Positions 514 to 15,162 of a DNA stretch of 64,000 nucleotides are shown here, piece by piece. The notes under the pieces are model-generated. The model ran no database searches and had not been told where the DNA came from. It saw nothing but the letters and a program-made list of their open reading frames with translations. The translations under genes and the position numbers were made by a program. The DNA comes from an uncultured Planctomycetaceae bacterium. GTDB lineage: Bacteria > Planctomycetota > Phycisphaerae > SM23-33. The stretch is from the NCBI GenBank assembly GCA_964428895.1, contig CAYRZU010000007.1, positions 688 through 64,687 on the forward strand, in the 5' to 3' direction. How positions within the stretch are numbered: position 1 is the stretch's first letter; the number at the start of each line of letters is the position of its first letter.

Positions 514-2040
514 CTATACGTCCACCGTCACGACCTTGGTGTCGGCCGCGGCGACGTAGGTGCCGTCGCGTTTGGCTTGCTCGCGTTCGGCTTTGCGTTC
601 CTGGATGATCTTACGGAAGACCTCAATCTCCACGCGCCAGCCCTTCATGGCTCGGCCCGACAATCGGCTGGTCTGCAACATCTCGAGGAGCTTGCTGGTG
701 AAGGACATCTTCCGACTCAGCACGGCCCGGAAGCTCCGGCCGTTCAGGTTGGTCCGGTAGAACCGGCGGTGGGCGTCGAAGAGCACGTCCTGGAAGTTTT
801 CGATGCCCAGGTGGCTGTGATCGTACAGGCAGTGCGTGCCGTCGAAGAAATCCCAGTCGCCCGGGAACTTCCGGAACAGCAGGTGCGGGCGATATTCGTC
901 GAACAGCGGCGTGCCCGGGAACGGCGTCAGGCACGAGAGCTGAATGGAGTTGATCTTGTTGCGCTGGCCGAACTCGAGAATGCCGTCCACGTGGGTCTGC
1001 TTGTGCTGCGGGCCGACCACGAACATGCCGTGAATCCAGATGCCGTTTTCCACGATGAGCTTCGTGTCGGTGGCAAGTCGCTCGGCCAGGGAAACGTCGC
1101 CCTTCTGGTAGCCCTTCTTCCAGCCCTTGGCGGTGGCCTCGTCGATGGTTTCGTAGCCGATGTAGAGGCTCTGGGCGCCGCCGCGGCGCATCAGCCGCAT
1201 CAGGTCCTTATCCAAACGCGTGCGGGAGGCGTCTTCCCACATGAAGTCGATGCGGCTCTGCGTGTTGAACCGCACGTTCATGGGGGCGATGCGGCGGAGG
1301 AGGTTCTTCAGCCACGGGCGGTTTGAGGTAAAATTGTCGTCGTAATAGAACAGCTGATTGAAGCCGCGGCCGGTATAGACCTTCAGGTCGTCGGCCACCT
1401 TTTGGACCGACTGCTGTCGCACGCGACGGCCGAACATGCGCGTCACCGAGCAGTACACGCACCCATAGGGGCAGCCCCGGCTGGTCATGGCGGGCAGTTC
1501 GTACAGTTCGTTGCGGTAGCAATGATCCAGCAGGTCTTCCTGGAAGCGGTGGATCAGGAAATGGTTCAGCGCGGGCAGTTCGTCGAGGTCTTCGACGGGC
1601 TCGCCCTCGTGGATGCCGTCTTCGACTTCCCCGGCCGCGATGGCCTCGATCATCCGCTCGCCTTCGCCGCGGCAAACGATGTCGGCGTGCTGGATCACTT
1701 CTTCGGGGACCATGGTCGCGTGCACGCCGCCCATGGCGATCTTCCCGGTGAAGCCATCCTCCCGCAGCTTGGCGGCGATGTCATAGCCCCGACCGGCGGT
1801 GGACGTCATGATGGTCAGACAGACCACGTCGGCGCTCTTCAGGTCGTCATAGACGACCGGGTCGGAATCGACCAAGCCGGAAATGTTCTCATTGAAAATG
1901 CGGACGTCGTAGCCGCGATTGTCCAGGATCGTCGCCAGCGTGATCGGCCCGACCAACGGCCAACGGGTGATCCAGACGTTCAGGGGGCGCGAGTGGCGCC
2001 CCTGCGGCTCGATAAACCGGATTTTCTTTCGGCTGAGCAT
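514..2040 (-). CDS. B12-binding-domain/radical SAM (class B) enzyme, probable methyltransferase
   Basis: 508 aa. Radical-SAM cluster motif CPYGCVYCSV (CxxxCxxC). An N-terminal cobalamin-binding-like Rossmann segment (DVVCLTIMTSTA...GGVHAT). The size is typical of class-B radical SAM methylases. Confidence 0.8.
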   Translation of the reverse strand: MLSRKKIRFIEPQGRHSRPLNVWITRWPLVGPITLATILDNRGYDVRIFNENISGLVDSDPVVYDDLKSADVVCLTIMTSTAGRGYDIAAKLREDGFTGKIAMGGVHATMVPEEVIQHADIVCRGEGERMIEAIAAGEVEDGIHEGEPVEDLDELPALNHFLIHRFQEDLLDHCYRNELYELPAMTSRGCPYGCVYCSVTRMFGRRVRQQSVQKVADDLKVYTGRGFNQLFYYDDNFTSNRPWLKNLLRRIAPMNVRFNTQSRIDFMWEDASRTRLDKDLMRLMRRGGAQSLYIGYETIDEATAKGWKKGYQKGDVSLAERLATDTKLIVENGIWIHGMFVVGPQHKQTHVDGILEFGQRNKINSIQLSCLTPFPGTPLFDEYRPHLLFRKFPGDWDFFDGTHCLYDHSHLGIENFQDVLFDAHRRFYRTNLNGRSFRAVLSRKMSFTSKLLEMLQTSRLSGRAMKGWRVEIEVFRKIIQERKAEREQAKRDGTYVAAADTKVVTVDV

Positions 2041-2169
2041 GTGGCTTCCGGGCCTAGAGCCCGACCTCGCTGGCTGGTTATGGAAAAACGCCCCGCACGC
2101 GAGCGGGGCAACTCATCGAGCGAACATAATAGCAGACAAAGTCGACAAATGCGAGACGGCGTCGCTGAA

Positions 2170-4290
2170 TTATGGCGAAACGCCGCGCCGCCGCCTCGGC
2201 CGCCAGAAGAGCTTCAGGCAGGCCGGTAGGAGGAGGATGTCGCCGACCGCGGCGGCGGTCATGGTGACGCCTATCAGTTCGGCGAAGCGGCGGGTGGGAA
2301 CGAAACTCGAGCCCAATAGCACGCTCATGCCGCCGACGATGATGATGGTGGTCAGGATGATGGCCCGGCCGGTCGTTCGATAGGTCCGGCCGATCGCCGC
2401 GGTCACGTCGCCGTCGACGGCGATCTCTCGGCGGAAGCGGGCCAGCGCGTGGACGCTGTCGTCGACGGCCATGCCCAGGCCGATCGAGAAGATGATGATG
2501 TTGGAGATGTTCATGTCGTAACCCCGCAGGCCGATGTAGCCCCAGGCGGCCGCCAGCGGCGCGGCGTTGGGGATCACCGCGATCAGCCCCATCCGCACCG
2601 ACCGGAACAACAGCCCGATCAGCGTCAGAATCACCACTGATGTGCCCACGAACGACAGCATGAACTCCCGGACCACCCACCGGATCACCCGGGCGTAGTC
2701 GACCGTCCGCCCCCCCAGCCGGGCCCGAACGTCCAGCCCGGCGAAGGCCGTGTTCAGGCCCGCCGTCAGGCGATCCGCCAACGCGCACATGCGGCGCGAG
2801 CCTTCGTAGTTGACGTTCAACGTCAGCGCGTGTCGGCTGGCTCGGCCAGTCGTGGGTTCGACTACGGCCCGGCCGGCGTCCCCGTTGGTGGGCTGCACCG
2901 CCAACACGCGGTCGGTCGCTTCGGCGAGCTCGGCGAACCGAGCGACCGCGGCATCCGTCTGGGGCGATTGCAGCGATTCGGCGTCGCCGGCCTCCAGCAC
3001 CACCCCCACTTCCGAAAAGCCGCCGAAATGGTTCTCGACAATATCGATGGCTTGGAGGATCGGATGATCGTCGTCATAAACCGCCGCCACGGAGGCGTTG
3101 ATTTTCGACCGCTGGCCCAGCCCCACGCACGCGGCCAACACCACCACGCCGATCAGCAACACCCACTTGGGCCGCCGCGAGGCCACCGACGACATGGCCA
3201 CCGCCGCCCGAGCTAACCAATCGTCGCCCGTGGCCCGAACCGGGGCCGGCCGCCGCGCCATCGGCAGCAGGCCGATCATCAGCCACAGCAACGCCAGATA
3301 TAGCAGCCCCAGCCCCACCACCGCCTGGCGGGCAAACGTGTGCAGCATCTCGGCCTGGGCCCCGCGCAGCGTGGCAAACCCAATCGCCGTGGTGGCCACC
3401 GTCAGCAAGCACGGCAAGGCCATCTGCCACAGCGTCCGCAGCGCCGCCCGGCGCGGCGAGAGCATGGTCAGCTCGCCCGTCTCGATATGCCGCGTCAGCA
3501 CGTGCACGCAGTTGGCCGTACCGATCGTGAACAGCACCGCCGGCAGAATGCTGCTGAGCAGGCCGAAGCTCTGACCGGTAACGGCCATGAAAACCATGAA
3601 CCACGCCATGGCCGCGGTGATCGTCACCAACGGCAAGGCCACGTCGATGGGTCTGCGAAACGCCACCACCAGCAGGATCGCAATCACCACCCCGGCCAGC
3701 GGCATCAGGCGGTGCTGGTCGGCCCGCAGGTCCTTCATAATCACCGCATGCACCGCGGGCCAACCGGCCTGATAGACCCGCCACCCCGCCGGGGGCGCTG
3801 ATCCCTTCAGCAACCGATCGACCTCACGCGATACGGATTGAGCGGCTGTCGGCTCGAGCCCATCCGGTTGAATCGCAATGCTCGCATATCGCCGATCGGC
3901 ACTAACGAGCTTGCCTTCCAGCCGAGCCAGCACCGCTGGCGACCTAGCCCCCGGGACCTCTGTCAACGCCCAGACGGTCTTGACCCGCGGCAACAACTTG
4001 ACCGCCTTGACGAACTCCCCCTGCCAGGCCAGGCCCTCCTCGCTTATCGCCGTCTCGCCACCCGGCGCCTCGGCCAACACAAACAACATCTCACTATCAT
4101 CGGACTTGACCAACGAACCGGCGTCCGAAAGCCGATGCTCGTATCCATCGAGAATGGCCCATGGCGAAAAATCGAATGCGATCTGCGGCGTCAGCGCCAC
4201 CCCCGCCAAGGCCACCAGCGCCGCCGCGGCCGTCAGCCACCAGCGACGCCGATACAAGAAGATGGACACCCGCCACCGCTTGATCGCCAC
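2170..4290 (-). CDS. MMPL/RND-superfamily membrane transporter (exporter)
   Basis: 706 aa with two blocks of about 5-6 hydrophobic helices, each preceded by a large soluble loop. This is MMPL-type topology. It has a GTG start with a GGAAGGGAAG Shine-Dalgarno upstream. It is tandem with the radical SAM gene. Confidence 0.7.
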   Translation of the reverse strand: MAIKRWRVSIFLYRRRWWLTAAAALVALAGVALTPQIAFDFSPWAILDGYEHRLSDAGSLVKSDDSEMLFVLAEAPGGETAISEEGLAWQGEFVKAVKLLPRVKTVWALTEVPGARSPAVLARLEGKLVSADRRYASIAIQPDGLEPTAAQSVSREVDRLLKGSAPPAGWRVYQAGWPAVHAVIMKDLRADQHRLMPLAGVVIAILLVVAFRRPIDVALPLVTITAAMAWFMVFMAVTGQSFGLLSSILPAVLFTIGTANCVHVLTRHIETGELTMLSPRRAALRTLWQMALPCLLTVATTAIGFATLRGAQAEMLHTFARQAVVGLGLLYLALLWLMIGLLPMARRPAPVRATGDDWLARAAVAMSSVASRRPKWVLLIGVVVLAACVGLGQRSKINASVAAVYDDDHPILQAIDIVENHFGGFSEVGVVLEAGDAESLQSPQTDAAVARFAELAEATDRVLAVQPTNGDAGRAVVEPTTGRASRHALTLNVNYEGSRRMCALADRLTAGLNTAFAGLDVRARLGGRTVDYARVIRWVVREFMLSFVGTSVVILTLIGLLFRSVRMGLIAVIPNAAPLAAAWGYIGLRGYDMNISNIIIFSIGLGMAVDDSVHALARFRREIAVDGDVTAAIGRTYRTTGRAIILTTIIIVGGMSVLLGSSFVPTRRFAELIGVTMTAAAVGDILLLPACLKLFWRPRRRRGVSP

Positions 4291-4292
4291 GG

Positions 4293-5045
4293 CTACTTCC
4301 CTTCCGCCAGTCCCTTGCTGGTCAGGAAATCATAGCTCTCGGCCAGAGCGTCGAACATATCGCCTTCAACCACGTCGAGTTCAACCACGGCCCATCGCAA
4401 CACATTGGGGTCCGTCCGCTCCAGGCAGCCGACGATGTCCATCTTGCCCTGGCCCAGCGGCGCCGAGGGGAACTTCGGCTCGATGGGCCCGTCCCGCAAG
4501 TGGATCACGGGCATGCGGCCGGCGTATTGCTCGATGACGGTTAGGTAGTCGGCCCCGGCGCAAGCGGCCCAGTACGGGTCGAATTCGGTCTGTAGCTTCG
4601 GACACAATTCGAACAACACCTCAAAGCCCACGCGTCCATTGACGCGCAACGCGAACTCGCCGTCATGGTTGTGCATGAACATGCCCATGCCAATCGATTC
4701 GAGTGTCTCGATGCCGGCGTTGATCTGCTCAGCTTCGGCTCTCAGGTCGTCGAAGGAGGCATCCTCAGGCAGGCCGCTGTGGCACATCATTGCCAGCCCC
4801 ATCGTCTGATAGGCTCCGATGCAGGTGTCGAAGCTCTCCCACTCCACGCCCGGATCCATCGACGAGCACAACTCCATGCCGACGTCCTCGACCATCGTGC
4901 GCCAGTCACGGGGCGAAAGCCCCAACAGCCCAACGGGCTCGACCGCCCGAAAGCCGATGTCGGCCACTCGCTTCAATGTGCCCGCGACGTCAGCTTGAAT
5001 CGTCTCCCGTAGCGTCCACAGATTCACACCAATCGGAGGAGCCAT
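4293..5045 (-). CDS. Sugar phosphate isomerase/epimerase (xylose isomerase-like TIM barrel) family protein
   Basis: 250 aa starting MAPPIGVNLWTLRE... The fold motifs match xylose-isomerase-like TIM barrels. It is paralogous to the next gene. Confidence 0.8.
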   Translation of the reverse strand: MAPPIGVNLWTLRETIQADVAGTLKRVADIGFRAVEPVGLLGLSPRDWRTMVEDVGMELCSSMDPGVEWESFDTCIGAYQTMGLAMMCHSGLPEDASFDDLRAEAEQINAGIETLESIGMGMFMHNHDGEFALRVNGRVGFEVLFELCPKLQTEFDPYWAACAGADYLTVIEQYAGRMPVIHLRDGPIEPKFPSAPLGQGKMDIVGCLERTDPNVLRWAVVELDVVEGDMFDALAESYDFLTSKGLAEGK

Positions 5046-5123
5046 GATCGATCTCCCAAAATGAAGCGCGGCGAGCCGCCCTGGCCCGCCGCGCTATTCA
5101 ATTCAAGCTTCTGAGACCTGGGC

Positions 5124-5870
5124 CTACTTGCCCGTACCCAAACCGTTGCTGGTCAGGAAGTCGATGCTCTGGGCAACCGCCTCCAGCATGTCGCCTTCGG
5201 CTTCGTCGAGCTCGACCACCGCCCACTTCAGGGCGCCGCCTTCAGCCGCCTTGAGGCAGCCGGCGATGTCGACCTTGCCCTGCCCGACGGCGGTCATGGG
5301 GCTGGCCGGTGAAATCGGGCCGTCCTTGACGTGCATCAGCGGCATGCGCGACCTGTAGCGGCTGATCACGTCCACCGGATCGGCCCCGCCGACCTGCACC
5401 CAATAGATGTCGGTTTCGGTCTGCAGCTTGGGGCACATCTCGAATAGCGTGTCGAACAGGCATTTGCCGTCGAACATCGCCTCGAACTCGCCGTTGTGGT
5501 TGTGCATGAACATGCTCATGCCCAGCGCGTCGAGCTTCTCGCACACCGCGTTGATGTCAGCCGCGGCCGCGGTGAGCTCGTCCAGCGTCGTGCCGCCGCC
5601 GAAGCCCATGTGGCTGACCATGTCCAGCCCTAAATCCTTGGCCGACTGAACGGCGCCGTCGAAATCGCTCATCACGTCCGGGCCGTGCGAACTGCTGACC
5701 TGCATGCCGAGGTCTTCGACCGCCTTGCGGACATCAGCGGCCGACATGTCGCCGAAACCGGCCGGCTCGACACCGGCATAGCCCATGTCGGCAATCTTCT
5801 TCAGCGTGCCCAGCATGTCCTGGGCGGTCTCTTCGCGAACGGAGTACAGTTGTACCGAAATAGGCGGCAT
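5124..5870 (-). CDS. Sugar phosphate isomerase/epimerase (xylose isomerase-like TIM barrel) family protein, tandem paralog
   Basis: Start chosen at the internal ATG (5868-5870, MPPISVQLYSVRE...), which has a GGAAGGA Shine-Dalgarno 9 nt upstream. The track ORF extends further 5' but has no SD. The protein aligns along its length with 4293..5045. Confidence 0.75.
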   Translation of the reverse strand: MPPISVQLYSVREETAQDMLGTLKKIADMGYAGVEPAGFGDMSAADVRKAVEDLGMQVSSSHGPDVMSDFDGAVQSAKDLGLDMVSHMGFGGGTTLDELTAAAADINAVCEKLDALGMSMFMHNHNGEFEAMFDGKCLFDTLFEMCPKLQTETDIYWVQVGGADPVDVISRYRSRMPLMHVKDGPISPASPMTAVGQGKVDIAGCLKAAEGGALKWAVVELDEAEGDMLEAVAQSIDFLTSNGLGTGK

Positions 5871-6476
5871 GGCTGGTGATCCTTCCATTTCTTGTGTTGT
5901 GTTGCCAAGTGTCCTATCGCCCGCGCGACGCGTCACCCACGGCCCAAAAGCCGAGAAACACGCCCCACGCGAACGCTGGAAGGTAGCCCCGCGACCGGCA
6001 CCTGTCAATCCGAACCGAACGTGTCATGACGAAAACGCCACCCCACCGTCAGCGCCACCCTCCAAGCCCATCGACTGCGTCGATGGGATCGCACCCGCAA
6101 ACCCAATGCGCGCAAAAAACGACAGACAGGCCCTATGGAGGCGATGGCCTGTCCGTCGCGACTCAAACCTTAGGTCCAGAGCCCTCACTTACCCTTACGG
6201 ACCCTCGGCGAATCAAAGAGCTACGTATGTTTGCCTGAACATCCTTGCGGCGACTTCTAGAAGTGTGCGTCTCGAATCGGTTGTCAGATATGCAACTCAA
6301 TTGATTATACGCGCGCCCTACAGGGACGACCTGAAAACCAATTACCACGGGTGAATTTTCTGCGCAAGTGAAGGCTGAATCGGCAAGAACACCTTTGTCA
6401 GACTTTGCGGCCGCATCTACAATGATCCCGAAACGCTCTGGGCGCCCCGGGCGGACAAGTCTATCAGATATCAGGG

Positions 6477-7583
6477 ATGACCATGTCAGACGCCTTGCTC
6501 GACACTCAGCCGGCCGAACTGCTCGTCAACTCGCATAATGAATGGGACCCGCTCGAAGAGGTCATTGTCGGGCGCGTCGCCGGCAGCGCCATGCCCCCCT
6601 GGCACGTCACGCTGAAGTCCACCGTCCCCCAGCGCGCCTGGGAAGTGCTGCAGGCGCTGTCAGGCAAGCCGGCGCCGCCGCCGTTCGTGACGGCCGCCCA
6701 GAAAGAGCTCGACACCTTCATTGACATCCTCGAGGCCGAAGGTGTGACCGTCCGCCGGCCGGACCTGATCCCCCAGGCCCGCCCGTTCGCCACGCCGGAT
6801 TGGGACTGCGAGGGCGGCTACAACATCGCCAACCCGCGCGACCTGCTGCTGGTGATCGGTGATGAGATCATCGAGACCGCCCCGGCCTGGCGGTCGCGCT
6901 ACTTCGAGGTCAATGCGTATCGGTCGTTGCTGATGGAATACTTCCGCGCCGGCGCCAAGTGGTCGGCCGCCCCCCGGCCGCGGTTGACCGATGATTTCTA
7001 CAATGACGATTACGAGGTCCCCGCCAAGAGCCAACCCCAACGGTACGCCATCAACGAGACGGAAGTCACCTTCGACGCCGCCGATTTCTGCCGATGCGGA
7101 CGGGACCTGTTCGTTACGCGAAGCAACGTCACCAACGATCTCGGCATCAAGTGGCTCGCCCGTCATCTCGGCGACGGCTATCGCATTCACACAATCGAAA
7201 CCAAGTCACGCCAGCCGATGCACATCGATACCACCTTCGTGCCGCTGGCGCCCGGCAAGGCGTTGATTAACCCCGAATACGTTGATACCGATCGGCTGCC
7301 GAGCGTGCTGGCCGAATGGGAGCTCCGCTACGCCCCCCTGCCGGTGGTCAACCCGGGTATGACCATCGATATGAGCAGCACCTGGCTGACCATGAACGTG
7401 CTGATGCTCGACCCCAAGCGCGTGATGGTCGAGGCCGCCCAGGAGCCGCTCATGCAGATGCTTCGGGACTGGGGCTTCGAGCCCGTCCCCTGCCCCTACC
7501 AGAACTACTACTACTTCGGCGGCGGCTTCCACTGCTCCACGCTCGATGTCCGCCGCCGCGGCGAACTGCAGTCCTACTTCTAG
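6477..7583 (+). CDS. L-arginine:glycine amidinotransferase (AGAT/StrB1) family amidinotransferase
   Basis: 368 aa with SHNEWDPLEEV near the N-terminus. The C-terminus GGGFHCSTLDVRRRGELQSYF contains the catalytic Cys and the VRRRG.LQSY signature of true amidinotransferases (AGAT-like). This distinguishes it from hydrolases of the same superfamily. Confidence 0.85.
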   Translation: MTMSDALLDTQPAELLVNSHNEWDPLEEVIVGRVAGSAMPPWHVTLKSTVPQRAWEVLQALSGKPAPPPFVTAAQKELDTFIDILEAEGVTVRRPDLIPQARPFATPDWDCEGGYNIANPRDLLLVIGDEIIETAPAWRSRYFEVNAYRSLLMEYFRAGAKWSAAPRPRLTDDFYNDDYEVPAKSQPQRYAINETEVTFDAADFCRCGRDLFVTRSNVTNDLGIKWLARHLGDGYRIHTIETKSRQPMHIDTTFVPLAPGKALINPEYVDTDRLPSVLAEWELRYAPLPVVNPGMTIDMSSTWLTMNVLMLDPKRVMVEAAQEPLMQMLRDWGFEPVPCPYQNYYYFGGGFHCSTLDVRRRGELQSYF

Positions 7584-7605
7584 TCGAGGCTGCGGGAGTC
7601 CGCCC

Positions 7606-10179
7606 ATGAAGTTCGCGTTTCTCATCCATCCCCTCAACGCCTACACCAAGCTATTGCTGCATCTGGGGGCGGGGGGCTTCTTCGCCAAGGATCGTCAGGA
7701 ACTCGACCTGTTCGACTTCTACGCCGACCTGCACAATACCGTCCAAACGCAAGGCCGCACCGTTCAGGACGCCGCCAGCGATGACGTACGCGTGGTCGAT
7801 GAGATGGCCGAACTGGTCAGCCACAACGGCTGCCGCGCCGCCGGTCGCATCTATGAAGTCCCCATGCAGGCCACCGAGATCATCGACAACCCCCAGCAAG
7901 CCGTCGGCTACATGGAAAAGGCCGTCGACCAGGCCGCCGACTGGGGCGCCGAACTGGTGGGACTGGGCTCGATGACGGGCGTGGTCGGCAGCCAGGGCGT
8001 GTACCTGGCCAACCGCGGCACCACCGCCATCACCACCGGGAACTGCCTGACCGCCTACGCCACGCTCGAGAATCTCCGCAGCCTTAGCGAGGACGCCGGC
8101 ATCGATCTGGCCGACGAGATCGTTACCGTGGTGGGCTGCCCGGGCAGCATCGCCATGGCGCTGGCCCACGCGCTGGTCGGAAAGTGTCGCGAGCTTCACC
8201 TGGTGGCCCGGCGGTTGTCGGCCCGGTCGCAGAGCCTGGCCGAACAACTCGGCGCCAAACTCCTGCTGGATATCCCCGAGGCCCTGTCGCAATCCCGCGT
8301 GGTCCTGTCGGCCACGTCCTCGGGCGACTGCATCGACCAGGCGTGGCTGCAGCCGGGCAGCGTGGTGCTCGACGTGGCGATCCCCTCCGACGTGGTCTGG
8401 CAGCCCGAGCCGCGCCCGGACGTGCTGGTGATCTCGGCGGGCCTGGCCACCGTGCCGCAGCAGATGATCGGCGATTCCATGCTGCTGGGGTTCTACGGCG
8501 GGCTCGTGCCCTCTTGCCTGGGCGAGACCATCATCCTGGCCCTGGAGAACCGCCCGGAGAACTACTCCGTCGGCCGCGACCTGGACCCCAAGCACATCCA
8601 GGAGATCGGCCAGCTCGCCCACAAGCACGGATTCGACTTCACGCGGCTGACCAGTTTCGGTCTGCCCATCGCCGAGAACGAGTTCACGCGGTTCCGCAAA
8701 ATCGTCACCCAACACGGCGCCCGCCCCCAACGCAAGATCCCCGCTGGAACCGACGGCGCCCCTCCTGCCAACGTCTTGCCCGACATCCCCTCCCTGGCCC
8801 AGCGCGCCCGCCAACGCTACCAGCGCTACGTCAACCCGGTCTGGGCCGCCCTGGGCGGTGAGTCCGGGCTGGTCAAGACATTCGTCCGCGCCGAAGGCGC
8901 GTTCCTCTACGACGCCGCCGACCGACGCTTCCTCGACTTCGTCGCCGGCTACGGCTCGATGAATCTCGGCCACAACCATCCGGCTGTTGTCGAAGCCGTC
9001 AGCTCGGCGCTTACCCAAAAAGCGCCCGGCTTCGCCCAGACGGCCGTCAACCCCCTGACGGCTGCCCTGGCTGAGAAGCTCATCTCCATCACACCCGGCA
9101 GCCTCGAACTGGCGTTCTTCACCAACAGCGGGGCCGAATCCGTCGAAGCCGCTCTCAAGCTCGCCCGCGCCGCGACTGGCCGAACGGGCCTGCTCAGTTG
9201 TGAAGGCGGCTACCACGGCAAGACGTTCGGCGCCCTGTCCGTTACCGCCAGCCCGCATTACCAAAGGCCGTTCTCGCCGCTGCTGGCCGATACCGCGGTC
9301 GTGCCCTTTGGCGACCTGGAAACGCTCGAGCGCGCCCTGAGCACACGGCGATTCGCCGCCTTTATCGTTGAGCCCATCCAGGGCGAAGGCGGTATGAACG
9401 TCCCGCCGGCCGGATACCTGGCCGAAGCACGAAAGCTCTGCCACGACGTCGGCACGTTGCTGATCGTCGATGAAGTCCAAACCGGCCTCGGGCGAACCGG
9501 CGAGCTGTTCGCCGTCAACCACGACGGGGTCGAGCCCGACATCATGACGCTGGCCAAGAGCCTCGGCGGCGGCCTCGTCCCGCTCGGCGCCATGCTCGCC
9601 CGCCGCGACCTATGGACCAAAGCCTACGGCACGCTCGACAGCTTCGCCCTGCACACCTCCACCTTCAGCGGGGGCAGTCTGGCCTGCGCGGCCGGCCTGG
9701 CCACACTGGACGTCCTCTGCAACGACGGGCTCGCCGACAGCGCCCGCCAGCACGGCCGGCAGCTCATGGCCACCCTCACCGAACTGTGTCGGCAATCCAC
9801 CATCCTCCAGGCCGTCCGCGGACGGGGCCTCATGATTGGTCTGGAGTTCCAGCCTATCTCCAAGGCGATCGCCCATCAGTTCGAACGCATGGCCCTGGCT
9901 GCCAACGCCGAGTTTATGGTCCGAGGCCTCGACGACCTGATCCAGACGATCCCCGTTACCTACGTGATGGCCACGCTGCTCCACGAGCACGGCATCTACA
10001 CCCAATTCACGCGATCCAACCCCAACGTGCTCCGCGTTCAGCCGCCGCTGATTGTCACCGAACGCCAGGCCGATCACTTCTGCGAGGCCGTCGAGCAGGC
10101 CTGTTCCGAGTGCTTCTACGTCAGCGGCCTGGCCGAGTCCGTCCTCAGCAAATCCATCGGCGACCACCGCAACCAGTAG
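7606..10179 (+). CDS. Bifunctional fusion: N-terminal NAD(P)-binding dehydrogenase-like domain (shikimate/amino-acid dehydrogenase-like Rossmann) joined to a C-terminal class-III PLP-dependent aminotransferase
   Basis: Start at ATG 7606 (MKFAFLIHPLNAY...), with a GGGAG Shine-Dalgarno 9 nt upstream. The N-terminal half has the Rossmann motif TVVGCPGSIAMALAHAL around residue 190. The C-terminal half (from about residue 420) has class-III aminotransferase motifs: GSMNLGHNHP, the DEVQTGLGRTG box, and the PLP-lysine context MTLAKSLGGG. Total length is 857 aa. Confidence 0.75.
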   Translation: MKFAFLIHPLNAYTKLLLHLGAGGFFAKDRQELDLFDFYADLHNTVQTQGRTVQDAASDDVRVVDEMAELVSHNGCRAAGRIYEVPMQATEIIDNPQQAVGYMEKAVDQAADWGAELVGLGSMTGVVGSQGVYLANRGTTAITTGNCLTAYATLENLRSLSEDAGIDLADEIVTVVGCPGSIAMALAHALVGKCRELHLVARRLSARSQSLAEQLGAKLLLDIPEALSQSRVVLSATSSGDCIDQAWLQPGSVVLDVAIPSDVVWQPEPRPDVLVISAGLATVPQQMIGDSMLLGFYGGLVPSCLGETIILALENRPENYSVGRDLDPKHIQEIGQLAHKHGFDFTRLTSFGLPIAENEFTRFRKIVTQHGARPQRKIPAGTDGAPPANVLPDIPSLAQRARQRYQRYVNPVWAALGGESGLVKTFVRAEGAFLYDAADRRFLDFVAGYGSMNLGHNHPAVVEAVSSALTQKAPGFAQTAVNPLTAALAEKLISITPGSLELAFFTNSGAESVEAALKLARAATGRTGLLSCEGGYHGKTFGALSVTASPHYQRPFSPLLADTAVVPFGDLETLERALSTRRFAAFIVEPIQGEGGMNVPPAGYLAEARKLCHDVGTLLIVDEVQTGLGRTGELFAVNHDGVEPDIMTLAKSLGGGLVPLGAMLARRDLWTKAYGTLDSFALHTSTFSGGSLACAAGLATLDVLCNDGLADSARQHGRQLMATLTELCRQSTILQAVRGRGLMIGLEFQPISKAIAHQFERMALAANAEFMVRGLDDLIQTIPVTYVMATLLHEHGIYTQFTRSNPNVLRVQPPLIVTERQADHFCEAVEQACSECFYVSGLAESVLSKSIGDHRNQ

Positions 10180-10257
10180 TTCCCCGCCTCGCTCCCACCG
10201 TTGAAATCCCCATCCGCGCCCCGTATCATCGCCCTTTCTCTCGCAAAAGGAGCATCG

Positions 10258-11229
10258 ATGCCGTCATTCAAAGTCCTCATCACCGATTACGTCTTTGAGC
10301 ACTTCGACGCCGAAACCGAAGTCCTCTCGGCCGTCGACGCCGAACTCGACATCCACCAGGCCAAGTCCGCCGATGAACTTGTCCCGCATCTGGGCGGCGT
10401 CAACGCCATCCTCAACACCTACCTGCCCGGCATGGACGACGCGATCTTCTCGGCCGCCCCGGACCTGAAGGTCATCGTCCGATACGGCATCGGCGTCGAC
10501 ACCATCGACGTCGCCGCCGCGACCGCCCGCGGCATCATGGTCGCCAACGTGCCCGACTACTGCATCGACGAAGTCTCCGACCACGCCCTGGCCCACTTCC
10601 TGTCGCTGGCCCGGAAGATTCCCTTTTCCGATCGCAAGGTCAAGGGCGGCGAATGGTCATTGGCCTACCTCAAACCCATGAAGGGCATCACCAACATGAC
10701 CTGCGGCGTGATCGGCTTCGGCCGCATCGGCCGGGCCATCGCCGCCCGCCTCAAAGCGTTCGGACCGGACATCATCTTCGCCGACCCGTTCGGCGACGGC
10801 GACGTGGACGGCTGCCGCCGCGTGTCGCTGGATGAACTGTTCGCCGAATCCGACGCAATCTTCGTGCAGTGCCCCTCCAGCGCCGAGACCTACCACCTGA
10901 TCGACCGGGCCGCCATTGAGAAGATGGCTAAGCAGCCCTTCATCATCAACTGCGCCCGCGGCGACGTTATCGATACCGACGCGATCGTCTGGGGCCTCGA
11001 AAACGACAAGATCGCCGGGGTCGGCCTCGACCTGCTCGACGATGAAGACGCCGTCGTCAAAGCAGACCATCCGCTCAAGGGGTTCGACAACGCCATCCTC
11101 ACCCCGCACAGCGCGTGGTATTCGGCCGACGCCCTCGACAAGTTGCAGCGAATGGCGGCCGAGGAAGTCGCCCGCGTGCTCCGTGGCGAAAAGCCCAAAT
11201 CGCTCATCAACCCCGACGTACTCAAGTAG
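10258..11229 (+). CDS. D-isomer-specific 2-hydroxyacid dehydrogenase family (PGDH/hydroxypyruvate reductase-like), NAD-binding
   Basis: Start at ATG 10258 with an AAAGGAG Shine-Dalgarno. It has the GVIGFGRIGRAIAARL Rossmann motif and a catalytic-domain layout typical of D-2-hydroxyacid dehydrogenases. Confidence 0.85.
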   Translation: MPSFKVLITDYVFEHFDAETEVLSAVDAELDIHQAKSADELVPHLGGVNAILNTYLPGMDDAIFSAAPDLKVIVRYGIGVDTIDVAAATARGIMVANVPDYCIDEVSDHALAHFLSLARKIPFSDRKVKGGEWSLAYLKPMKGITNMTCGVIGFGRIGRAIAARLKAFGPDIIFADPFGDGDVDGCRRVSLDELFAESDAIFVQCPSSAETYHLIDRAAIEKMAKQPFIINCARGDVIDTDAIVWGLENDKIAGVGLDLLDDEDAVVKADHPLKGFDNAILTPHSAWYSADALDKLQRMAAEEVARVLRGEKPKSLINPDVLK

Positions 11230-11238
11230 GAGTTCCCC

Positions 11239-12024
11239 ATGAAGCTCGCGAAAATCGACGCTAACGGCCACGTAGCCTACGCCCAGGTCGACGGCGACAC
11301 CTGCCGACTGATCGACGGCTGCATCTTCGGCGAATTCACCGTCACGGATAAGACCGTGGCCCTGGCCGACGTTAAGCTCCTGGCCCCCGTTCAGCCGCGC
11401 CAGCTCGTGGCGATCGGCCTGAACTATCGGGCCCACGCCGAAGAATCCGGCATGGCCATTCCCGAACGCCCGCTGATCTTCATCAAGACGCCCAACTGCG
11501 TGGTCGGGCCGGGCGAGCCCATCCTGCTGCCTAAGATGGCGCCCGACGAGGTCGACTACGAGTGCGAACTCGTGATCGTCATCGGCAAAGAGGCCAAGAG
11601 CGTCTCCGTGGCCGACGCCCCGGGCTACGTCCTGGGCTACACCTGCGGCAACGACGTCAGCGCCCGCGACTGCCAGCTCAAGCAGGACAAGCAATGGGCT
11701 CGCGGCAAGAGCTTCGACACCTTCGCCCCGCTCGGCCCGTGGATCGAAACCGAGCTCGACGCCGACAACGTCGGCATCAAGCTATCCGTCAACGGCCAAG
11801 AGCGCCAGAACTCCACCACCTCCGACCTGATCTTCCCCTGCATGGAACTGGTCAGCTACGTCTCCCAGTGCATGACGCTGTACCCGGGCAGCATCATCAT
11901 GACCGGCACGCCGTCGGGCATCGCCTTTGCGATGGACCCGCCGCCGTTCCTGCGCGACGGCGACACCGTTACCGTCGACATCGACGGCATCGGGGCGCTG
12001 ACCAACCCCGTGAAAAAGGAGTAG
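11239..12024 (+). CDS. Fumarylacetoacetate hydrolase (FAH) family protein (2-keto-4-pentenoate hydratase/oxaloacetate decarboxylase-like)
   Basis: 261 aa with an AGGAG Shine-Dalgarno 7 nt upstream. The FAH-fold signature segments are present (…GLNYRAHAEE…, …ECELVIVIGK…, …IMTGTPSG…). Confidence 0.8.
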   Translation: MKLAKIDANGHVAYAQVDGDTCRLIDGCIFGEFTVTDKTVALADVKLLAPVQPRQLVAIGLNYRAHAEESGMAIPERPLIFIKTPNCVVGPGEPILLPKMAPDEVDYECELVIVIGKEAKSVSVADAPGYVLGYTCGNDVSARDCQLKQDKQWARGKSFDTFAPLGPWIETELDADNVGIKLSVNGQERQNSTTSDLIFPCMELVSYVSQCMTLYPGSIIMTGTPSGIAFAMDPPPFLRDGDTVTVDIDGIGALTNPVKKE

Positions 12025-12028
12025 CAAC

Positions 12029-13501
12029 ATGGATATCCGAAACCAACTCTTCATCGGCGGCGCCTGGTGCGATTCATCCGATGGCAAGACGTTCGAGGTG
12101 ACCAACCCCGCCACGAATGCATCCATCACGGCCGTCCAGTCGGCCTCCGAAGCCGACTTGAACCGCGCGATCGATAACTCCAAGCAGACCTTTGACGCGG
12201 TCTGGAGTAAGACCACCCCGTTCGAGCGGAGCGCGTTCCTGCACAAGCTGGCCGAGGCCGTCGAGAACAATGCCGACTTCCTGGCGGCTGTCGAAACCGA
12301 CGACGTCGGTAAGCCCATCTTCGAAAGCGCCAACATCGACGTCGCCAGCGCCGGCGCCACGCTCCACTACTTCGCCGACATCTGCGTGGAGGTCCTCGGC
12401 GGCGTCAAGGCCAGCCCCTACAACGAGGTCTTCGACTACACCCTCCGCGAGCCGCTGGGCGTGGTCGGGGCTATCACCCCGTGGAACTTCCCGTTCCTGA
12501 TCGCCGCCCGCAAGATCGGCTCGGCCCTGGCCGCGGGCAACACCATGGTCCTGAAGCCCGCCTCCTGGGCGCCGCTGAGCACGATCCTATTCGGCGAACT
12601 CGCCAACGAGGCCGGCCTGCCCGCCGGCGTGCTGAACATCGTCCCCGGCGCCGGGGCGACGGTCGGCAAGGTCTTCACCGAAAACCCCGACCTCGAAGAG
12701 ATATCCTTCACCGGCTCGACGGAAGTCGGCATGGGCCTGTACGGCCAGTGCAACACCGGGCTGAAGGGTTGCACGCTGGAACTGGGCGGCAAAGGCGCCG
12801 GGCTGGTCATGCCCGACTGCGCCATGGACGAAACAGTCGCCGGCACGCTGTTCGGCGTGTTCCTCAACCAGGGCGAATGCTGCTGCGCCCTGACGCGGCT
12901 GATTGTGCATGAAGACGTCTACGACGAGTTCGTCGACAAGTTCGTCGCCGGCGCCCAGGCCATCCCCGTCGGCGTGCCGACGGCTGAGGACACCCGCCTC
13001 GGGCCGTTGGTCCACCCCGACCATCTCCAGACCGTGCTCGATTACGTCGAAGCCGGCAAGGCCGAAGGCGCCACGCTCGCTTGCGGCGGCGAGCGTCTGA
13101 CCGACGGCGAGATGGCCAAAGGCAACTACATGGCCCCGACTGTCTTCACCGACGTAAGCCCCCAGATGCGAATCTGGAAGGAAGAAATCTTCGGCCCGGT
13201 GGTGACGGTGACGAAGGCCTCCAGCGTCGACGAGATGGTGGCGTTGTGCAACGACACCGAGTACGGCCTCGCCTCGAGCGTCTGGACCAACGACCTGCGG
13301 CTGGCCCACACCATCGTCCCGCGGATGAAGACGGGCACGGTGTGGTTCAACCTGCACAACTTCGTGTTCCCCAGCGCCCCGTACCCCACCTGCGGATCGT
13401 CCGGCGTGGGCTTCGAGCTGGGCAAAGAAGGCGTCCTGGCGCTGACCCGCATCAAGAACGTCATGGTCAGCCTGTTTCCCGACGGCTTCGCTTGGTACTA
13501 G
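12029..13501 (+). CDS. NAD(P)+-dependent aldehyde dehydrogenase
   Basis: 490 aa with an AAGGAG Shine-Dalgarno. The ALDH glutamate box is ELGGKGAGLVMPD and the catalytic Cys region is NQGECCCALTRLIV. Confidence 0.9.
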   Translation: MDIRNQLFIGGAWCDSSDGKTFEVTNPATNASITAVQSASEADLNRAIDNSKQTFDAVWSKTTPFERSAFLHKLAEAVENNADFLAAVETDDVGKPIFESANIDVASAGATLHYFADICVEVLGGVKASPYNEVFDYTLREPLGVVGAITPWNFPFLIAARKIGSALAAGNTMVLKPASWAPLSTILFGELANEAGLPAGVLNIVPGAGATVGKVFTENPDLEEISFTGSTEVGMGLYGQCNTGLKGCTLELGGKGAGLVMPDCAMDETVAGTLFGVFLNQGECCCALTRLIVHEDVYDEFVDKFVAGAQAIPVGVPTAEDTRLGPLVHPDHLQTVLDYVEAGKAEGATLACGGERLTDGEMAKGNYMAPTVFTDVSPQMRIWKEEIFGPVVTVTKASSVDEMVALCNDTEYGLASSVWTNDLRLAHTIVPRMKTGTVWFNLHNFVFPSAPYPTCGSSGVGFELGKEGVLALTRIKNVMVSLFPDGFAWY

Positions 13502-13596: not shown

Positions 13597-15162
13597 GTGA
13601 TTTCGCGCGTTCATAGCAGCATTCTGCAGGGCATTGACGCGGTCGCCTGTGAGGTCGAAGCCGACGTCGCTATCGGCGGCATGGGAGAGATCAAGTTGGT
13701 CGGCCTGGCCGAAGCGGCCGTCAAGGAATCGGTCAGCCGCATCCAGGCGGCGCTTCGCAATAGCGGTTACCGCTGGCCCGGGCCCAAGGTGACCATCAAC
13801 CTCGCGCCGGCCGACGTGAAGAAGGACTCCGCCGCGTTCGACCTGCCCATCGCCATCGCCGTCTGCGTGGCCGGCGGGCTGTTCGCCTCCGAAAAGCTCA
13901 CCGACTACGTGCTGATCGGCGAACTCGCCCTCGACGCCCGCGTCCGCCCGGCCAAGGGAGTATTGGCGACGGCCATGATGGCCGCCGCTGAAGGGCGCCG
14001 GGGTGTGATCGTGCCCACCGAGAACGCCGCCGAGGCGGCCGTGGTCGACGGGCTCGACGTGATCGCCGTCAGCCATCTCGCCCAGGCCGTCGGCTTCCTG
14101 ACCGATGAATTGCTGATCGAACCGGTCGACCTCGACCTGGACGACATCTTCGCCATCGCCAGCCAATACGACGAGGACTTCGCCGACGTTCGCGGCCAGG
14201 AATCGGCCAAGCGGGCGCTGATGGTGGCCGCCGCCGGCCATCACAACATTCTCATGATCGGCCCTCCGGGGTCCGGCAAGACCATGCTGGCCAAGCGAAT
14301 CCCCACCGTCCTGCCGCCGCTCTCGTTGGATGAATCGCTGGAGACCACCCGCATCTACTCCTCGCGCGGCCTGCTTACGCCCGGCGAATCGCTGATGGCC
14401 ACACGGCCCGTCCGAACCCCCCACCACTCCAGCTCGTCAGCCGCCCTGATCGGCGGCGGGGCCATCCCCCAGCCGGGCGAGGTCTCGCTCGCCCATCACG
14501 GCGTATTGTTCCTCGATGAGTTCCCCGAGTTCGCACGGCCGACGCTGGAGATGATCCGTCAGCCGTTGGAGGATCGGTGCGTCACCATCCCCCGCGTGCA
14601 CAGCACGCTGAAGTTCCCGGCCTCGATCATGCTCGTCGCGGCCATGAACCCCTGCCCGTGCGGTTACTTCACCGACCCCAAACGCCCCTGCAAATGCACC
14701 CCCAACGCCATCGAGCGTTACCTGGGAAGAGTCTCCGGCCCACTCATCGACCGCATCGACATCCACGTAGAAGTCCCCCCCGTCCCCTGGCGGGAACTCC
14801 GCGGAGAACCCAACGGCCTATCCAGCCAACAAATCCGCACCCAAGTTAGCGCCGCCCGCCAAATCCAACGCGACCGCTTCGCCAACGGCTCCCCCACTCC
14901 GCATTCCGAGCTCCGCACTCCGCACTCAACCACCACCAACGCGACCATGTCGTCGAAAGAGCTACGGACCCACTGCCCCCTGGACGACGCATGCGAAGCA
15001 TTACTAAAGCAGGCCATGCTAGAACTAGGCCTATCCGCCCGCGCTCACGACAAAGTCCTAAGAATCGCCAGAACCATCGCCGACCTAGAAGCCACAGAAG
15101 CCATCCACCCCCACCACCTCGCCGAAGCCATCCAATACCGGCGGCTGGATAGAAAGCTGTAA
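13597..15162 (+). CDS. YifB/ComM family Mg-chelatase-like AAA+ ATPase
   Basis: GTG start at 13597 with a GGAGG Shine-Dalgarno 7 nt upstream (VISRVHSSILQGIDAV...). Walker A is GPPGSGKT. A C-terminal Mg-chelatase ChlI-like domain is present. Confidence 0.85.
   Translation: MISRVHSSILQGIDAVACEVEADVAIGGMGEIKLVGLAEAAVKESVSRIQAALRNSGYRWPGPKVTINLAPADVKKDSAAFDLPIAIAVCVAGGLFASEKLTDYVLIGELALDARVRPAKGVLATAMMAAAEGRRGVIVPTENAAEAAVVDGLDVIAVSHLAQAVGFLTDELLIEPVDLDLDDIFAIASQYDEDFADVRGQESAKRALMVAAAGHHNILMIGPPGSGKTMLAKRIPTVLPPLSLDESLETTRIYSSRGLLTPGESLMATRPVRTPHHSSSSAALIGGGAIPQPGEVSLAHHGVLFLDEFPEFARPTLEMIRQPLEDRCVTIPRVHSTLKFPASIMLVAAMNPCPCGYFTDPKRPCKCTPNAIERYLGRVSGPLIDRIDIHVEVPPVPWRELRGEPNGLSSQQIRTQVSAARQIQRDRFANGSPTPHSELRTPHSTTTNATMSSKELRTHCPLDDACEALLKQAMLELGLSARAHDKVLRIARTIADLEATEAIHPHHLAEAIQYRRLDRKL

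Follow-up and report, generated by a model that had tools for sequence, protein, structure and literature searches.

A conserved amidinotransferase and PigE-type fusion gene pair as a candidate guanidine-making cassette in a marine planctomycete-like genome

Introduction

Bacterial homologues of AGAT are numerous (more than 5000 in the protein search made here), and the acceptor amine is known for only a handful of them. In saxitoxin biosynthesis, SxtG amidinates an amine made by a pyridoxal phosphate (PLP)-dependent enzyme on a carrier-bound acyl chain. HsvA, the partners of which are HsvB (an ATP-grasp ligase) and HsvC, amidinates an amine that is not an amino acid and is a precedent for alkyl-amine acceptors. 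Here, a locus of five plus-strand genes (positions 6477-13501) is analyzed in a 64,000-nt stretch of DNA from a marine planctomycete-like genome; this whole stretch is termed the window. The first gene of the locus encodes an AGAT-type amidinotransferase and the second a two-domain protein related to PigE, in which a thioester reductase is fused to an aminotransferase. Taken singly, the genes belong to known families and are ordinary members of them; what appears to be new is the pairing of amidinotransferase and PigE-type fusion.

PigE reduces a thioester and then transaminates the resulting aldehyde, for which ornithine or arginine is the best amino donor; Cys296 of PigE and Cys294 of AAR, an acyl-acyl carrier protein (ACP) reductase, have been named as catalytic (PMC8341465). 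TamH, which carries the two domains of PigE in reverse order, converts C12-acyl-ACP to a C12 amine (PMC9594044). Among natural lipids, a guanidine-substituted bacteriohopanetetrol cyclitol ether is known (PMC5358736). Literature searches found no paper joining an amidinotransferase with a thioester reductase plus transaminase, with a hopanoid, or with an alkylguanidine, and the literature found to name Planctomycetes in this connection concerns saxitoxin gene origins only. A preceding analysis of the window from the nucleotide letters, termed the sequence-only reading below, could name no characterized cluster for the locus; in agreement, none was found here, nor any publication of the pairing.

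Comparison with related loci suggests that the locus is a composite, in which genes 1 and 2 would constitute a guanidine-making cassette beside an unrelated organic-acid module. This account is favored at about even confidence. The amidinotransferase–PigE pair probably makes a guanidine compound from a thioester-derived amine.

The Amidinotransferase and Its Fusion Partner

The two genes of the pair, and the two domains of the fusion protein, are as follows.

6477-7583, plus strand: gene 1, amidinotransferase, 368 amino acids (aa); may instead start at ATG 6483
7606-10179, plus strand: gene 2, fusion protein, 857 aa
7606..8865, plus strand: N-terminal domain of gene 2, acyl-ACP-reductase-like thioester reductase with a PigE-type GxPGSI nucleotide-binding motif and Cys304
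8866..10179, plus strand: C-terminal domain of gene 2, class-III (omega) aminotransferase with putative PLP lysine K651

In sequence searches of the PDB, the gene 1 product matches solved amidinotransferases from end to end, in the order SxtG (2.3e-124), human AGAT (3.4e-100), HsvA (6.5e-98), and StrB1 (2.7e-70), and its triad D200/H249/C353 is aligned with AGAT D254/H303/C407 (phmmer alignment). A Pfam search gives nothing above threshold. Signals of hydrolase families are confined to the model for dimethylarginine dimethylaminohydrolase (DDAH; 24 bits, cut-off 340) and Pfam arginine deiminase (ADI; 14.9 bits). The sequence-only reading had taken this protein for a true amidinotransferase rather than a DDAH/ADI-type hydrolase, pointing to a C-terminal VRRRGELQSYF motif and a catalytic Cys; the motif and the Cys are present, and the matches to SxtG, AGAT, HsvA, and StrB1, together with the feeble DDAH/ADI scores, uphold that assignment. 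By these sequence comparisons, gene 1 is an AGAT-family enzyme of the transferase branch.

The N-terminal 420 residues of the gene 2 product match PigE (4ppm, 2.1e-49), cyanobacterial acyl-ACP reductase (6jzq, 6.1e-11), and glutamyl-tRNA reductase (3e-3) in the PDB, and Cys304 is aligned with PigE Cys296 and AAR Cys294. The C-terminal domain matches Pfam Aminotran_3 (5.7e-100) and, in the PDB, PigE (8.8e-106) and putrescine aminotransferase (4.5e-87). The NCBIfam PigE model NF053554 scores 785.6 bits over residues 67-855, below its equivalog cut-off of 850, and on these matches gene 2 is an architectural relative of PigE, not an equivalog. In the earlier description of this protein as a dehydrogenase-like/class-III aminotransferase fusion, the class-III half stands, and the other half can be specified as an acyl-ACP-reductase-like thioester reductase.

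Conservation of the Pair in Relatives

Gene neighborhoods were surveyed at 80 reference-genome loci of amidinotransferase homologues (amidinotransferase identity 53-66%, usually with 10 kb of flank per side) and at 63 metagenome loci of PigE-like genes, and ten local proteins of the window were searched against both sets by tblastn. In clustering of neighboring genes, a filter on GC content at third codon positions (GC3) was applied against antisense open reading frame (ORF) artefacts in high-GC loci. Beyond marginal similarity, none of the other four genes was found near the amidinotransferase homologues at the 80 reference-genome loci.

The nearest homologue of the amidinotransferase is a partial copy of 90% identity on a sister contig (L160), followed by a gap to 73, 71, and 70%. 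In a neighbor-joining tree, the window amidinotransferase and those at least 70% identical to it form one branch. A PigE-type aminotransferase is adjacent to the amidinotransferase in all four independent lineages of this clade, one being the window with L160 and the others the three loci below, in which identities refer to the window proteins.

L161: amidinotransferase 70%; complete PigE-type fusion downstream in the same orientation, its N-domain 46% identical
L157: amidinotransferase 73%; convergent aminotransferase, aminotransferase domain 56%, N-terminus lost at the contig end; SugE/Gdx-type SMR gene
L086: amidinotransferase 71%; aminotransferase then amidinotransferase, aminotransferase domain 53%; SMR, MMPL, and FAD-oxidase genes

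By comparison, none of the 79 other amidinotransferase loci that have 3 kb or more of flank shows the pairing (Fisher p ~5e-7, a value not corrected for phylogeny). The three differing gene orders suggest that selection, and not mere inheritance, has kept the two genes together. A functional tie of the amidinotransferase to the neighboring fusion, which the sequence-only reading had drawn from the window, is thus supported by adjacency conserved within the clade. The SugE/Gdx-type SMR family exports guanidinium and related cations, and its genes near the pair are found in both L157 and L086, L086 having the MMPL gene in addition. In L086, a 200-residue N-terminal extension (L086:5455-6069) in place of the reductase domain is weakly ACP-like (E 2.5e-4), which hints at carrier-tethered chemistry.

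Pirellulales, Thermoguttaceae, Rhodopirellula, and other Planctomycetia have many full-length PigE-like fusions, 52-60% identical to that of the window. These planctomycete genes (L091-L103; proteins P0242-P0360) adjoin rph, glmS, and genes for phosphohexomutases and DUF1501 proteins, with no amidinotransferase and no pigment genes. The simplest history appears to be recruitment of the amidinotransferase beside a resident fusion gene; in that case, the amine from the fusion would have its own function in these bacteria. The wide distribution of PigE-type fusions would imply an amine product so far undescribed in the phylum.

The two genes might instead be neighbors by coincidence: the acceptor of the amidinotransferase would be an unrelated soluble molecule (for example glycine, lysine, a polyamine, or an amino-cyclitol), and the fusion next to it would simply be a core gene of planctomycetes. 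Such an account accommodates the diverse contexts of amidinotransferase homologues (P-type ATPase, SxtA-like polyketide synthase, arginine decarboxylase, IolG-like oxidoreductase, and hopanoid genes), the frequency in Planctomycetia of the fusion gene without an amidinotransferase, and the clustering of the window fusion with copies of that kind. What it has to explain is a PigE-type adjacency seen in every lineage of the amidinotransferase clade, in three gene orders and with divergent partners, and nowhere else, a pattern hard to obtain by chance. Coincidence is therefore considered unlikely, and it is the alternative that survives best.

Genes 3-5 as a Probably Separate Module

The remaining three genes of the locus, and a promoter-like site before them, are as follows.

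10201..10229, plus strand: sigma-70-like promoter candidate TTGAAA-17-TATCAT from a consensus scan, within the 78-nt spacer before gene 3
10258-11229, plus strand: gene 3, D-2-hydroxyacid dehydrogenase, 323 aa; first of a conserved trio
11239-12024, plus strand: gene 4, fumarylacetoacetate hydrolase (FAH)-family protein with an Rv2993c-like N-terminus, 261 aa; second of the trio
12029-13501, plus strand: gene 5, NAD(P)-dependent aldehyde dehydrogenase, 490 aa; third of the trio

Gene 3 matches Pfam 2-Hacid_dh_C (3e-48) and 2-Hacid_dh (1.5e-26), and in the PDB phosphoglycerate dehydrogenase (8e-52) and glyoxylate reductases (~1e-47). Gene 4 matches Pfam FAA_hydrolase (1.5e-69), and in the PDB HpcE/HpaG-type isomerase/decarboxylases (2e-67 to 1e-60) and L-2,4-diketo-3-deoxyrhamnonate hydrolase (3e-45). 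Gene 5 matches Pfam Aldedh (1.1e-154), and its best NCBIfam model, betaine-aldehyde dehydrogenase, scores 450 bits, below the cut-off of 593. Homologues of gene 4 form a smooth identity series of 93, 87, 86, 80, and 75% down to 60% in Planctomycetota and other metagenome-assembled genomes (MAGs) of the Planctomycetes-Verrucomicrobia-Chlamydiae group, in contrast to the identity gap of genes 1 and 2. The trio as a whole recurs at three loci, with the following identities for dehydrogenase/FAH protein/aldehyde dehydrogenase.

L154: 83/86/92%
L155: 81/80/87%
L156: 66/75/73%

At these loci the order of the trio and its tight spacing are kept, the surroundings are different each time, and no amidinotransferase or PigE-like gene is within reach. 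Conversely, no trio gene is present at the amidinotransferase-linked loci L086, L157, and L161. Upstream of gene 3 in L154 and L155, TTGCGA/TTGCAA-17-TACATT is aligned to the position of TTGAAA-17-TATCAT in the window. The best explanation of these sequence patterns is that genes 3-5 are an independent, vertically inherited module with a promoter-like site of its own. Since the trio is conserved without genes 1 and 2, the locus would consist of a two-gene cassette upstream of an independent three-gene module. What the sequences establish is the assignment of families and domains, the retention of catalytic residues, and two patterns of neighborhood conservation.

The sequence-only reading had treated the five genes as one operon and had proposed to examine their co-localization in other genomes. 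As a set they fail this examination: the trio stands alone in L154-L156, the full set is absent by tblastn from all 80 amidinotransferase loci and from the full-length PigE-like loci, and only the sister contig L160 shares all five. The trio and the amidinotransferase–PigE pair are each conserved separately. The sole exception at PigE-like loci is a 39%-identical aldehyde dehydrogenase beside two of them, directly downstream in L094 and L103.

A specific pathway for the trio was sought and not retained, as the family matches are generic and all below NCBIfam cut-offs (HpcE-type FAH; glyoxylate reductase/phosphoglycerate dehydrogenase type; class 1/2/betaine aldehyde dehydrogenase). With low confidence, the trio is taken for a small 2-oxo-acid/aldehyde catabolic module. 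The substrate of the FAH-type enzyme would then be a 2,4-dioxo or 2-oxo-ene acid, the fragments of which would be processed by the aldehyde dehydrogenase and the 2-oxo/2-hydroxy-acid dehydrogenase.

Alternatively, the five genes could be one operon for one pathway, either guanidino biosynthesis with genes 3-5 as tailoring or precursor steps, or a shunt from arginine through ornithine and glutamate-semialdehyde to glutamate, in which the aldehyde dehydrogenase would oxidize the semialdehyde left by ornithine-dependent transamination. The genes share a strand and are separated by spacers of 22, 78, 9, and 4 nt without a plus-strand terminator-like site, and the whole arrangement is kept in the ~90%-identical sister contig. 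In addition, ornithine as a PigE-type donor would leave an aldehyde, and the aldehyde dehydrogenase genes of L094 and L103 directly follow a PigE-like gene. Against this, three other contexts have the trio as a unit (66-92% identity) but not genes 1 and 2, amidinotransferase-linked L086, L157, and L161 are without trio genes, and the promoter-like site is at the same place in trio-only loci. Moreover, the aldehyde dehydrogenase fits glutamate-semialdehyde models worse (318 bits) than betaine-/phenylacetaldehyde dehydrogenase (~450 bits). A single five-gene pathway is thus rated somewhat less likely still than coincidence of the pair. Comparison with known arginine catabolic clusters (AST, ADI, and arginine transaminase) gave an AstC-type model at 247 bits (cut-off 610) and no AstA/B/D/E or ArcA/B/C match among the ten genes scanned. 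The shunt, one of two pathways that the sequence-only reading had entertained, may survive as a side-stream, given the preference of PigE for ornithine (PMC8341465), but not as the purpose of the locus.

A Proposed Route to Guanidines

In the mechanism proposed for the pair, an acyl-ACP or acyl-CoA thioester would be reduced to an aldehyde by the acyl-ACP-reductase-like domain, and the class-III aminotransferase domain would convert the aldehyde to a primary amine, activities that are suggested by PigE, TamH, and AAR. The amidinotransferase would then move the amidino group of L-arginine to the amine via a Cys353 amidino-enzyme intermediate, yielding an N-substituted guanidine and ornithine; it is solely the conserved adjacency that points to this amine as the acceptor. 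As PigE prefers ornithine, the ornithine freed by the amidinotransferase may feed the transamination as amino donor, and by such a loop arginine would supply both nitrogens. The acyl chain might be fatty or otherwise hydrophobic, which is a guess from the PigE, TamH, and AAR precedents. Export of the cationic product is hinted at by the SMR and MMPL genes of relatives and by a divergent MMPL gene in the window (see below). We infer which thioester is used, in which direction the reactions run, the ornithine loop, and the export step.

In its fullest form, this mechanism would give marine Planctomycetes and their allies a previously undescribed way of making N-alkyl guanidines, possibly long-chain and lipid-like: an acyl-ACP is reduced and transaminated, the amine is then amidinated, arginine is used twice, and the product leaves through an SMR (Gdx-type) or MMPL exporter. 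This full form is tentative, a possibility that falls well short of an even chance.

Several observations weigh against a guanidine-making pair beside a separate module. The window fusion is closer to planctomycete homologues without an amidinotransferase (N-domain 52-56%, aminotransferase domain 62-66%) than to those linked to one (46-56%), which suggests a primary role independent of the amidinotransferase. The partner in L086 lacks the reductase domain, and L157 and L161 are on short contigs. The window itself has no gene for an ACP, a ligase, or an SMR protein. Because AGAT catalysis can proceed either way, the direction of flux is an assumption. Finally, L160 (~90% nucleotide identity), the sole contig sharing all five genes, keeps them together with the YifB gene that follows, and read-through co-transcription of genes 1-2 with genes 3-5 is possible.

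Divergent Genes and the Question of Lipid Amidination

Upstream of the five genes, four genes are encoded on the opposite strand.

5124-5870, minus strand: TIM barrel, xylose-isomerase-like (weak Pfam match)
4293-5045, minus strand: TIM barrel, xylose-isomerase-like (weak Pfam match)
2170-4290, minus strand: MMPL/RND (HAE3) transporter, 706 aa
514-2040, minus strand: B12-binding radical SAM protein

The divergent pair of xylose-isomerase-like TIM barrels noted in the sequence-only reading is present, and its matches are weak (48 and 30 bits). The best NCBIfam matches of the radical SAM protein are far below threshold and comprise HpnJ (102 bits, cut-off 578), BchE, and a ladderane-associated lipid radical SAM; the MMPL protein scores 62 bits against HpnN (cut-off 752). 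The minus-strand genes (514-5870) are tightly packed and may be a lipid-modification and export unit. They are linked to the amidinotransferase locus by position only, plus an unrelated MMPL gene beside the pair in L086. This TIM/TIM/MMPL/radical-SAM block was considered as part of the system; it does not recur near amidinotransferase or PigE-like homologues, and it is at most a putative member.

These genes enter into another account, in which the amidinotransferase modifies a lipid head group (an amino-hopanoid, a cyclitol-ether amine, or another amino-lipid) and the divergent MMPL, B12-radical-SAM, and TIM-barrel genes belong to the same pathway. Two amidinotransferase homologues embedded in hopanoid clusters give it some substance.

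L087:4930-11104: amidinotransferase 67%; squalene-hopene cyclase (SHC; 650 bits), HpnH (404 bits), HpnG-like, then the amidinotransferase
L003:3216-15833: amidinotransferase 55%; HpnM, HpnN, SHC, amidinotransferase, HpnL-like; a class-III aminotransferase is encoded a few genes further on

The natural guanidine-substituted bacteriohopanetetrol cyclitol ether (PMC5358736) is in keeping with this account, as are the best match of the radical SAM protein to HpnJ and the weak likeness of the MMPL protein to HpnN. These two matches, however, are those at 102 versus 578 bits and 62 versus 752 bits, the block is not found near amidinotransferase or PigE-like homologues elsewhere, and the hopanoid-linked amidinotransferases are outside the clade that pairs with an aminotransferase. 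Furthermore, tblastn of the 64-kb window with proteins of L087 and L003 found no SHC, HpnH, HpnG, HpnL, or HpnM, and a marginal 88-residue HpnN-like match (E 1e-4). Lipid head-group amidination at this locus is thus improbable. By their gene context, the amidinotransferases of the L087 and L003 clusters may themselves be the missing guanidinylation enzymes of guanidine-substituted hopanoids.

Still less probable is a catabolic or salvage function, in which the amidinotransferase would run backward: a guanidino compound taken up from outside, for instance 4-guanidinobutyrate or agmatine, would react with ornithine to form arginine and an omega-amine; the aminotransferase domain would turn the omega-amine to an aldehyde and the aldehyde dehydrogenase would oxidize this. 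The reaction of AGAT is known to be reversible, putrescine aminotransferases are the nearest stand-alone relatives of the aminotransferase domain (4.5e-87), and an aldehyde dehydrogenase gene is downstream. But this function leaves the conserved thioester-reductase domain with its catalytic Cys without a role, the aldehyde dehydrogenase gene is part of the trio, which is conserved independently, no uptake system is nearby, and the relatives carry exporters (SMR, MMPL), not importers.

The aminocyclitol route floated in the sequence-only reading gains no support from the window beyond the weak TIM-barrel matches: the barrels score 21-29 bits against IolE (cut-off 290), and of the solved relatives of the amidinotransferase, StrB1 is the most remote.

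Gene Calls, Spacing, and Upstream Region

Further features of the locus are the following.

6395..6423, plus strand: sigma-70-like promoter candidate TTGTCA-17-TACAAT from the consensus scan, ~50 nt upstream of the amidinotransferase gene
13597-15162: YifB-type Mg-chelatase-like ATPase, the gene after the five

The five plus-strand genes are borne out as real ORFs: their GC3 is uniformly high (0.85-0.90), as in the neighboring genes, and the JGI gene calls for the 142-kb source contig Ga0118727_1000150, found in several related metagenome samples, give the identical five genes. The family labels of all five likewise hold in Pfam, NCBIfam, and PDB sequence searches. A start of gene 3 at the TTG at 10201 is not upheld; the ATG at 10258, preceded by a Shine-Dalgarno motif, fits the JGI call and the N-termini of homologues. 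From this start, the spacer before gene 3 is 78 nt, and the claim that all spacers are 4-23 nt is wrong for this gene; in order, those of genes 1-5 are 22, 78, 9, and 4 nt. Shine-Dalgarno-like motifs are found as claimed before genes 2-5 (GGGAG, AAGGAG, TAGGAG, and AAGGAG, respectively). No terminator-like site is present on the plus strand between the five genes.

The sigma-70 consensus scan gave three sites in the region, with 1.2 expected, and the sites are candidates only. The divergent intergenic region (5871-6476, 606 nt) has a GC content of 0.57, compared with 0.64 for the window, and contains two plus-strand promoter-like sites. No Rfam family reaches its gathering score in the whole window. 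A riboswitch or other RNA upstream was considered and set aside, as a search of 5900-6600 at E up to 10 gave one chance lncRNA match only. GC and GC3 are even across all nine genes, and recent horizontal transfer of genes 1 and 2, also considered, leaves no compositional signal. Elsewhere in the window, the larger ORFs that were sampled encode ordinary housekeeping proteins (leucyl-tRNA synthetase, aspartate kinase, S-adenosylhomocysteine hydrolase, MnmG, signal peptidase, and CstA).

Other Contexts of Amidinotransferase Homologues

Among the 80 reference loci, the amidinotransferase is found with a P-type ATPase in 14, with an SxtA-like polyketide synthase (PKS) in three, with arginine decarboxylase in three, and with hopanoid genes in two. 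The P-type ATPase, of heavy-metal type (382 bits, TIGR01525), lies at most 7 kb from the amidinotransferase in the 14 loci and is directly adjacent in several, a recurrent pairing in cyanobacteria, Chloroflexota, Beggiatoa-like, and other bacteria.

P-type ATPase loci: L004, L011, L015, L016, L019, L024, L026, L031, L036, L039, L044, L048, L058, L064

In one MAG each of Desulfamplus, Pseudomonadota, and Methylococcaceae (L004:10001-15803, L036, and L063), the amidinotransferase has in its vicinity a PKS that combines acyltransferase, carrier, and 8-amino-7-oxononanoate-synthase-like domains, a layout like that of SxtA and SxtG; in L004, a P-type ATPase gene is between the two. In L034, L037:8046-11062, and L044, it is close to the biosynthetic arginine decarboxylase SpeA (847 bits), which it directly follows in L037. 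This proximity suggests that amidination is tied to agmatine/polyamine metabolism in sulfur-oxidizing Gammaproteobacteria (Thiotrichales, Marithrix) and a Desulfobacteraceae MAG.

In planctomycete relatives with amidinotransferases of 66-68% identity (L089 and L158), an IolG-like GFO/IDH/MocA oxidoreductase gene starts 16 nt after the amidinotransferase (L089:10001-12160), and GFO/IDH/MocA oxidoreductases and a xylose-isomerase-like TIM barrel are encoded within a few kb of it (L158). By gene context, these two loci are the only hint of a cyclitol acceptor, and they are outside the clade in which the amidinotransferase is paired with an aminotransferase.

Significance

For one clade of a family with few known acceptors, the amidinotransferase–PigE pairing provides a concrete two-gene hypothesis, formation of a guanidine on a thioester-derived amine. 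The hypothesis is specific and comes from comparative genomics. It would, if true, make arginine a double nitrogen donor, and should the product be an alkylguanidine, a little-explored phylum would have yielded a new class of cationic amphiphile or antimicrobial. The analysis also draws attention to unstudied PigE-like fusions that are widespread in Planctomycetia. In addition, it advises caution against over-reading tight spacing as a pathway, as three of the five genes belong to another conserved unit.

Comparison with Known Systems

One comparison is with the StrB1 aminocyclitol route (inosose to inosamine to amidino-inosamine), in which, as proposed here, an aminotransferase step precedes the amidinotransferase; IolE-like TIM barrels are also near the amidinotransferase gene in the window. 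StrB1 is the most distant of the solved relatives (2.7e-70), and the streptomycin route differs in that the aminotransferase here is of class III and fused to a thioester reductase, whereas the inosamine aminotransferase of that route belongs to another aminotransferase class.

HsvA, the polyamine amidinotransferase of Erwinia amylovora, is a bacterial AGAT homologue like the window enzyme (6.5e-98). The contexts differ: no ATP-grasp family is among the Pfam calls within 10 kb, HsvB and HsvC not having been sought by name.

With SxtG, CyrA, and human AGAT (L-arginine:X amidinotransferases, EC 2.1.4.x), the window amidinotransferase shares the triad and the C-terminal GGGFHC...VRRRG...SY motif. 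Its neighbors include neither an SxtA-type PKS/8-amino-7-oxononanoate synthase, nor a Cyr PKS–nonribosomal peptide synthetase, nor a methyltransferase of the creatine pathway; its partner is instead the thioester-reductase/omega-aminotransferase fusion.

The TamA/TamH fatty-amine cascade of tambjamine YP1 combines an AAR-like thioester reductase with an omega-transaminase, and its chemistry is the same as that proposed for the fusion. In TamH the transaminase precedes the thioester reductase, opposite to the order in the window. Moreover, TamH requires a dedicated ANL-ACP protein, TamA, for which the window has no such gene, and its amine is condensed with a bipyrrole, not amidinated.

PigE, of the MAP pathway in prodigiosin biosynthesis, resembles the fusion in domain order, length (~853 aa, compared with 857), catalytic Cys, and fold of the PLP domain. 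No thiamine diphosphate-enzyme (PigD-type) or FAD-oxidase (PigB-type) family is among the Pfam calls within 10 kb, PigD and PigB not having been sought by name, and the window fusion belongs instead to a large planctomycete group in housekeeping contexts. The amine made by PigE is cyclized to a pyrroline, whereas that of the window fusion is proposed to be amidinated.

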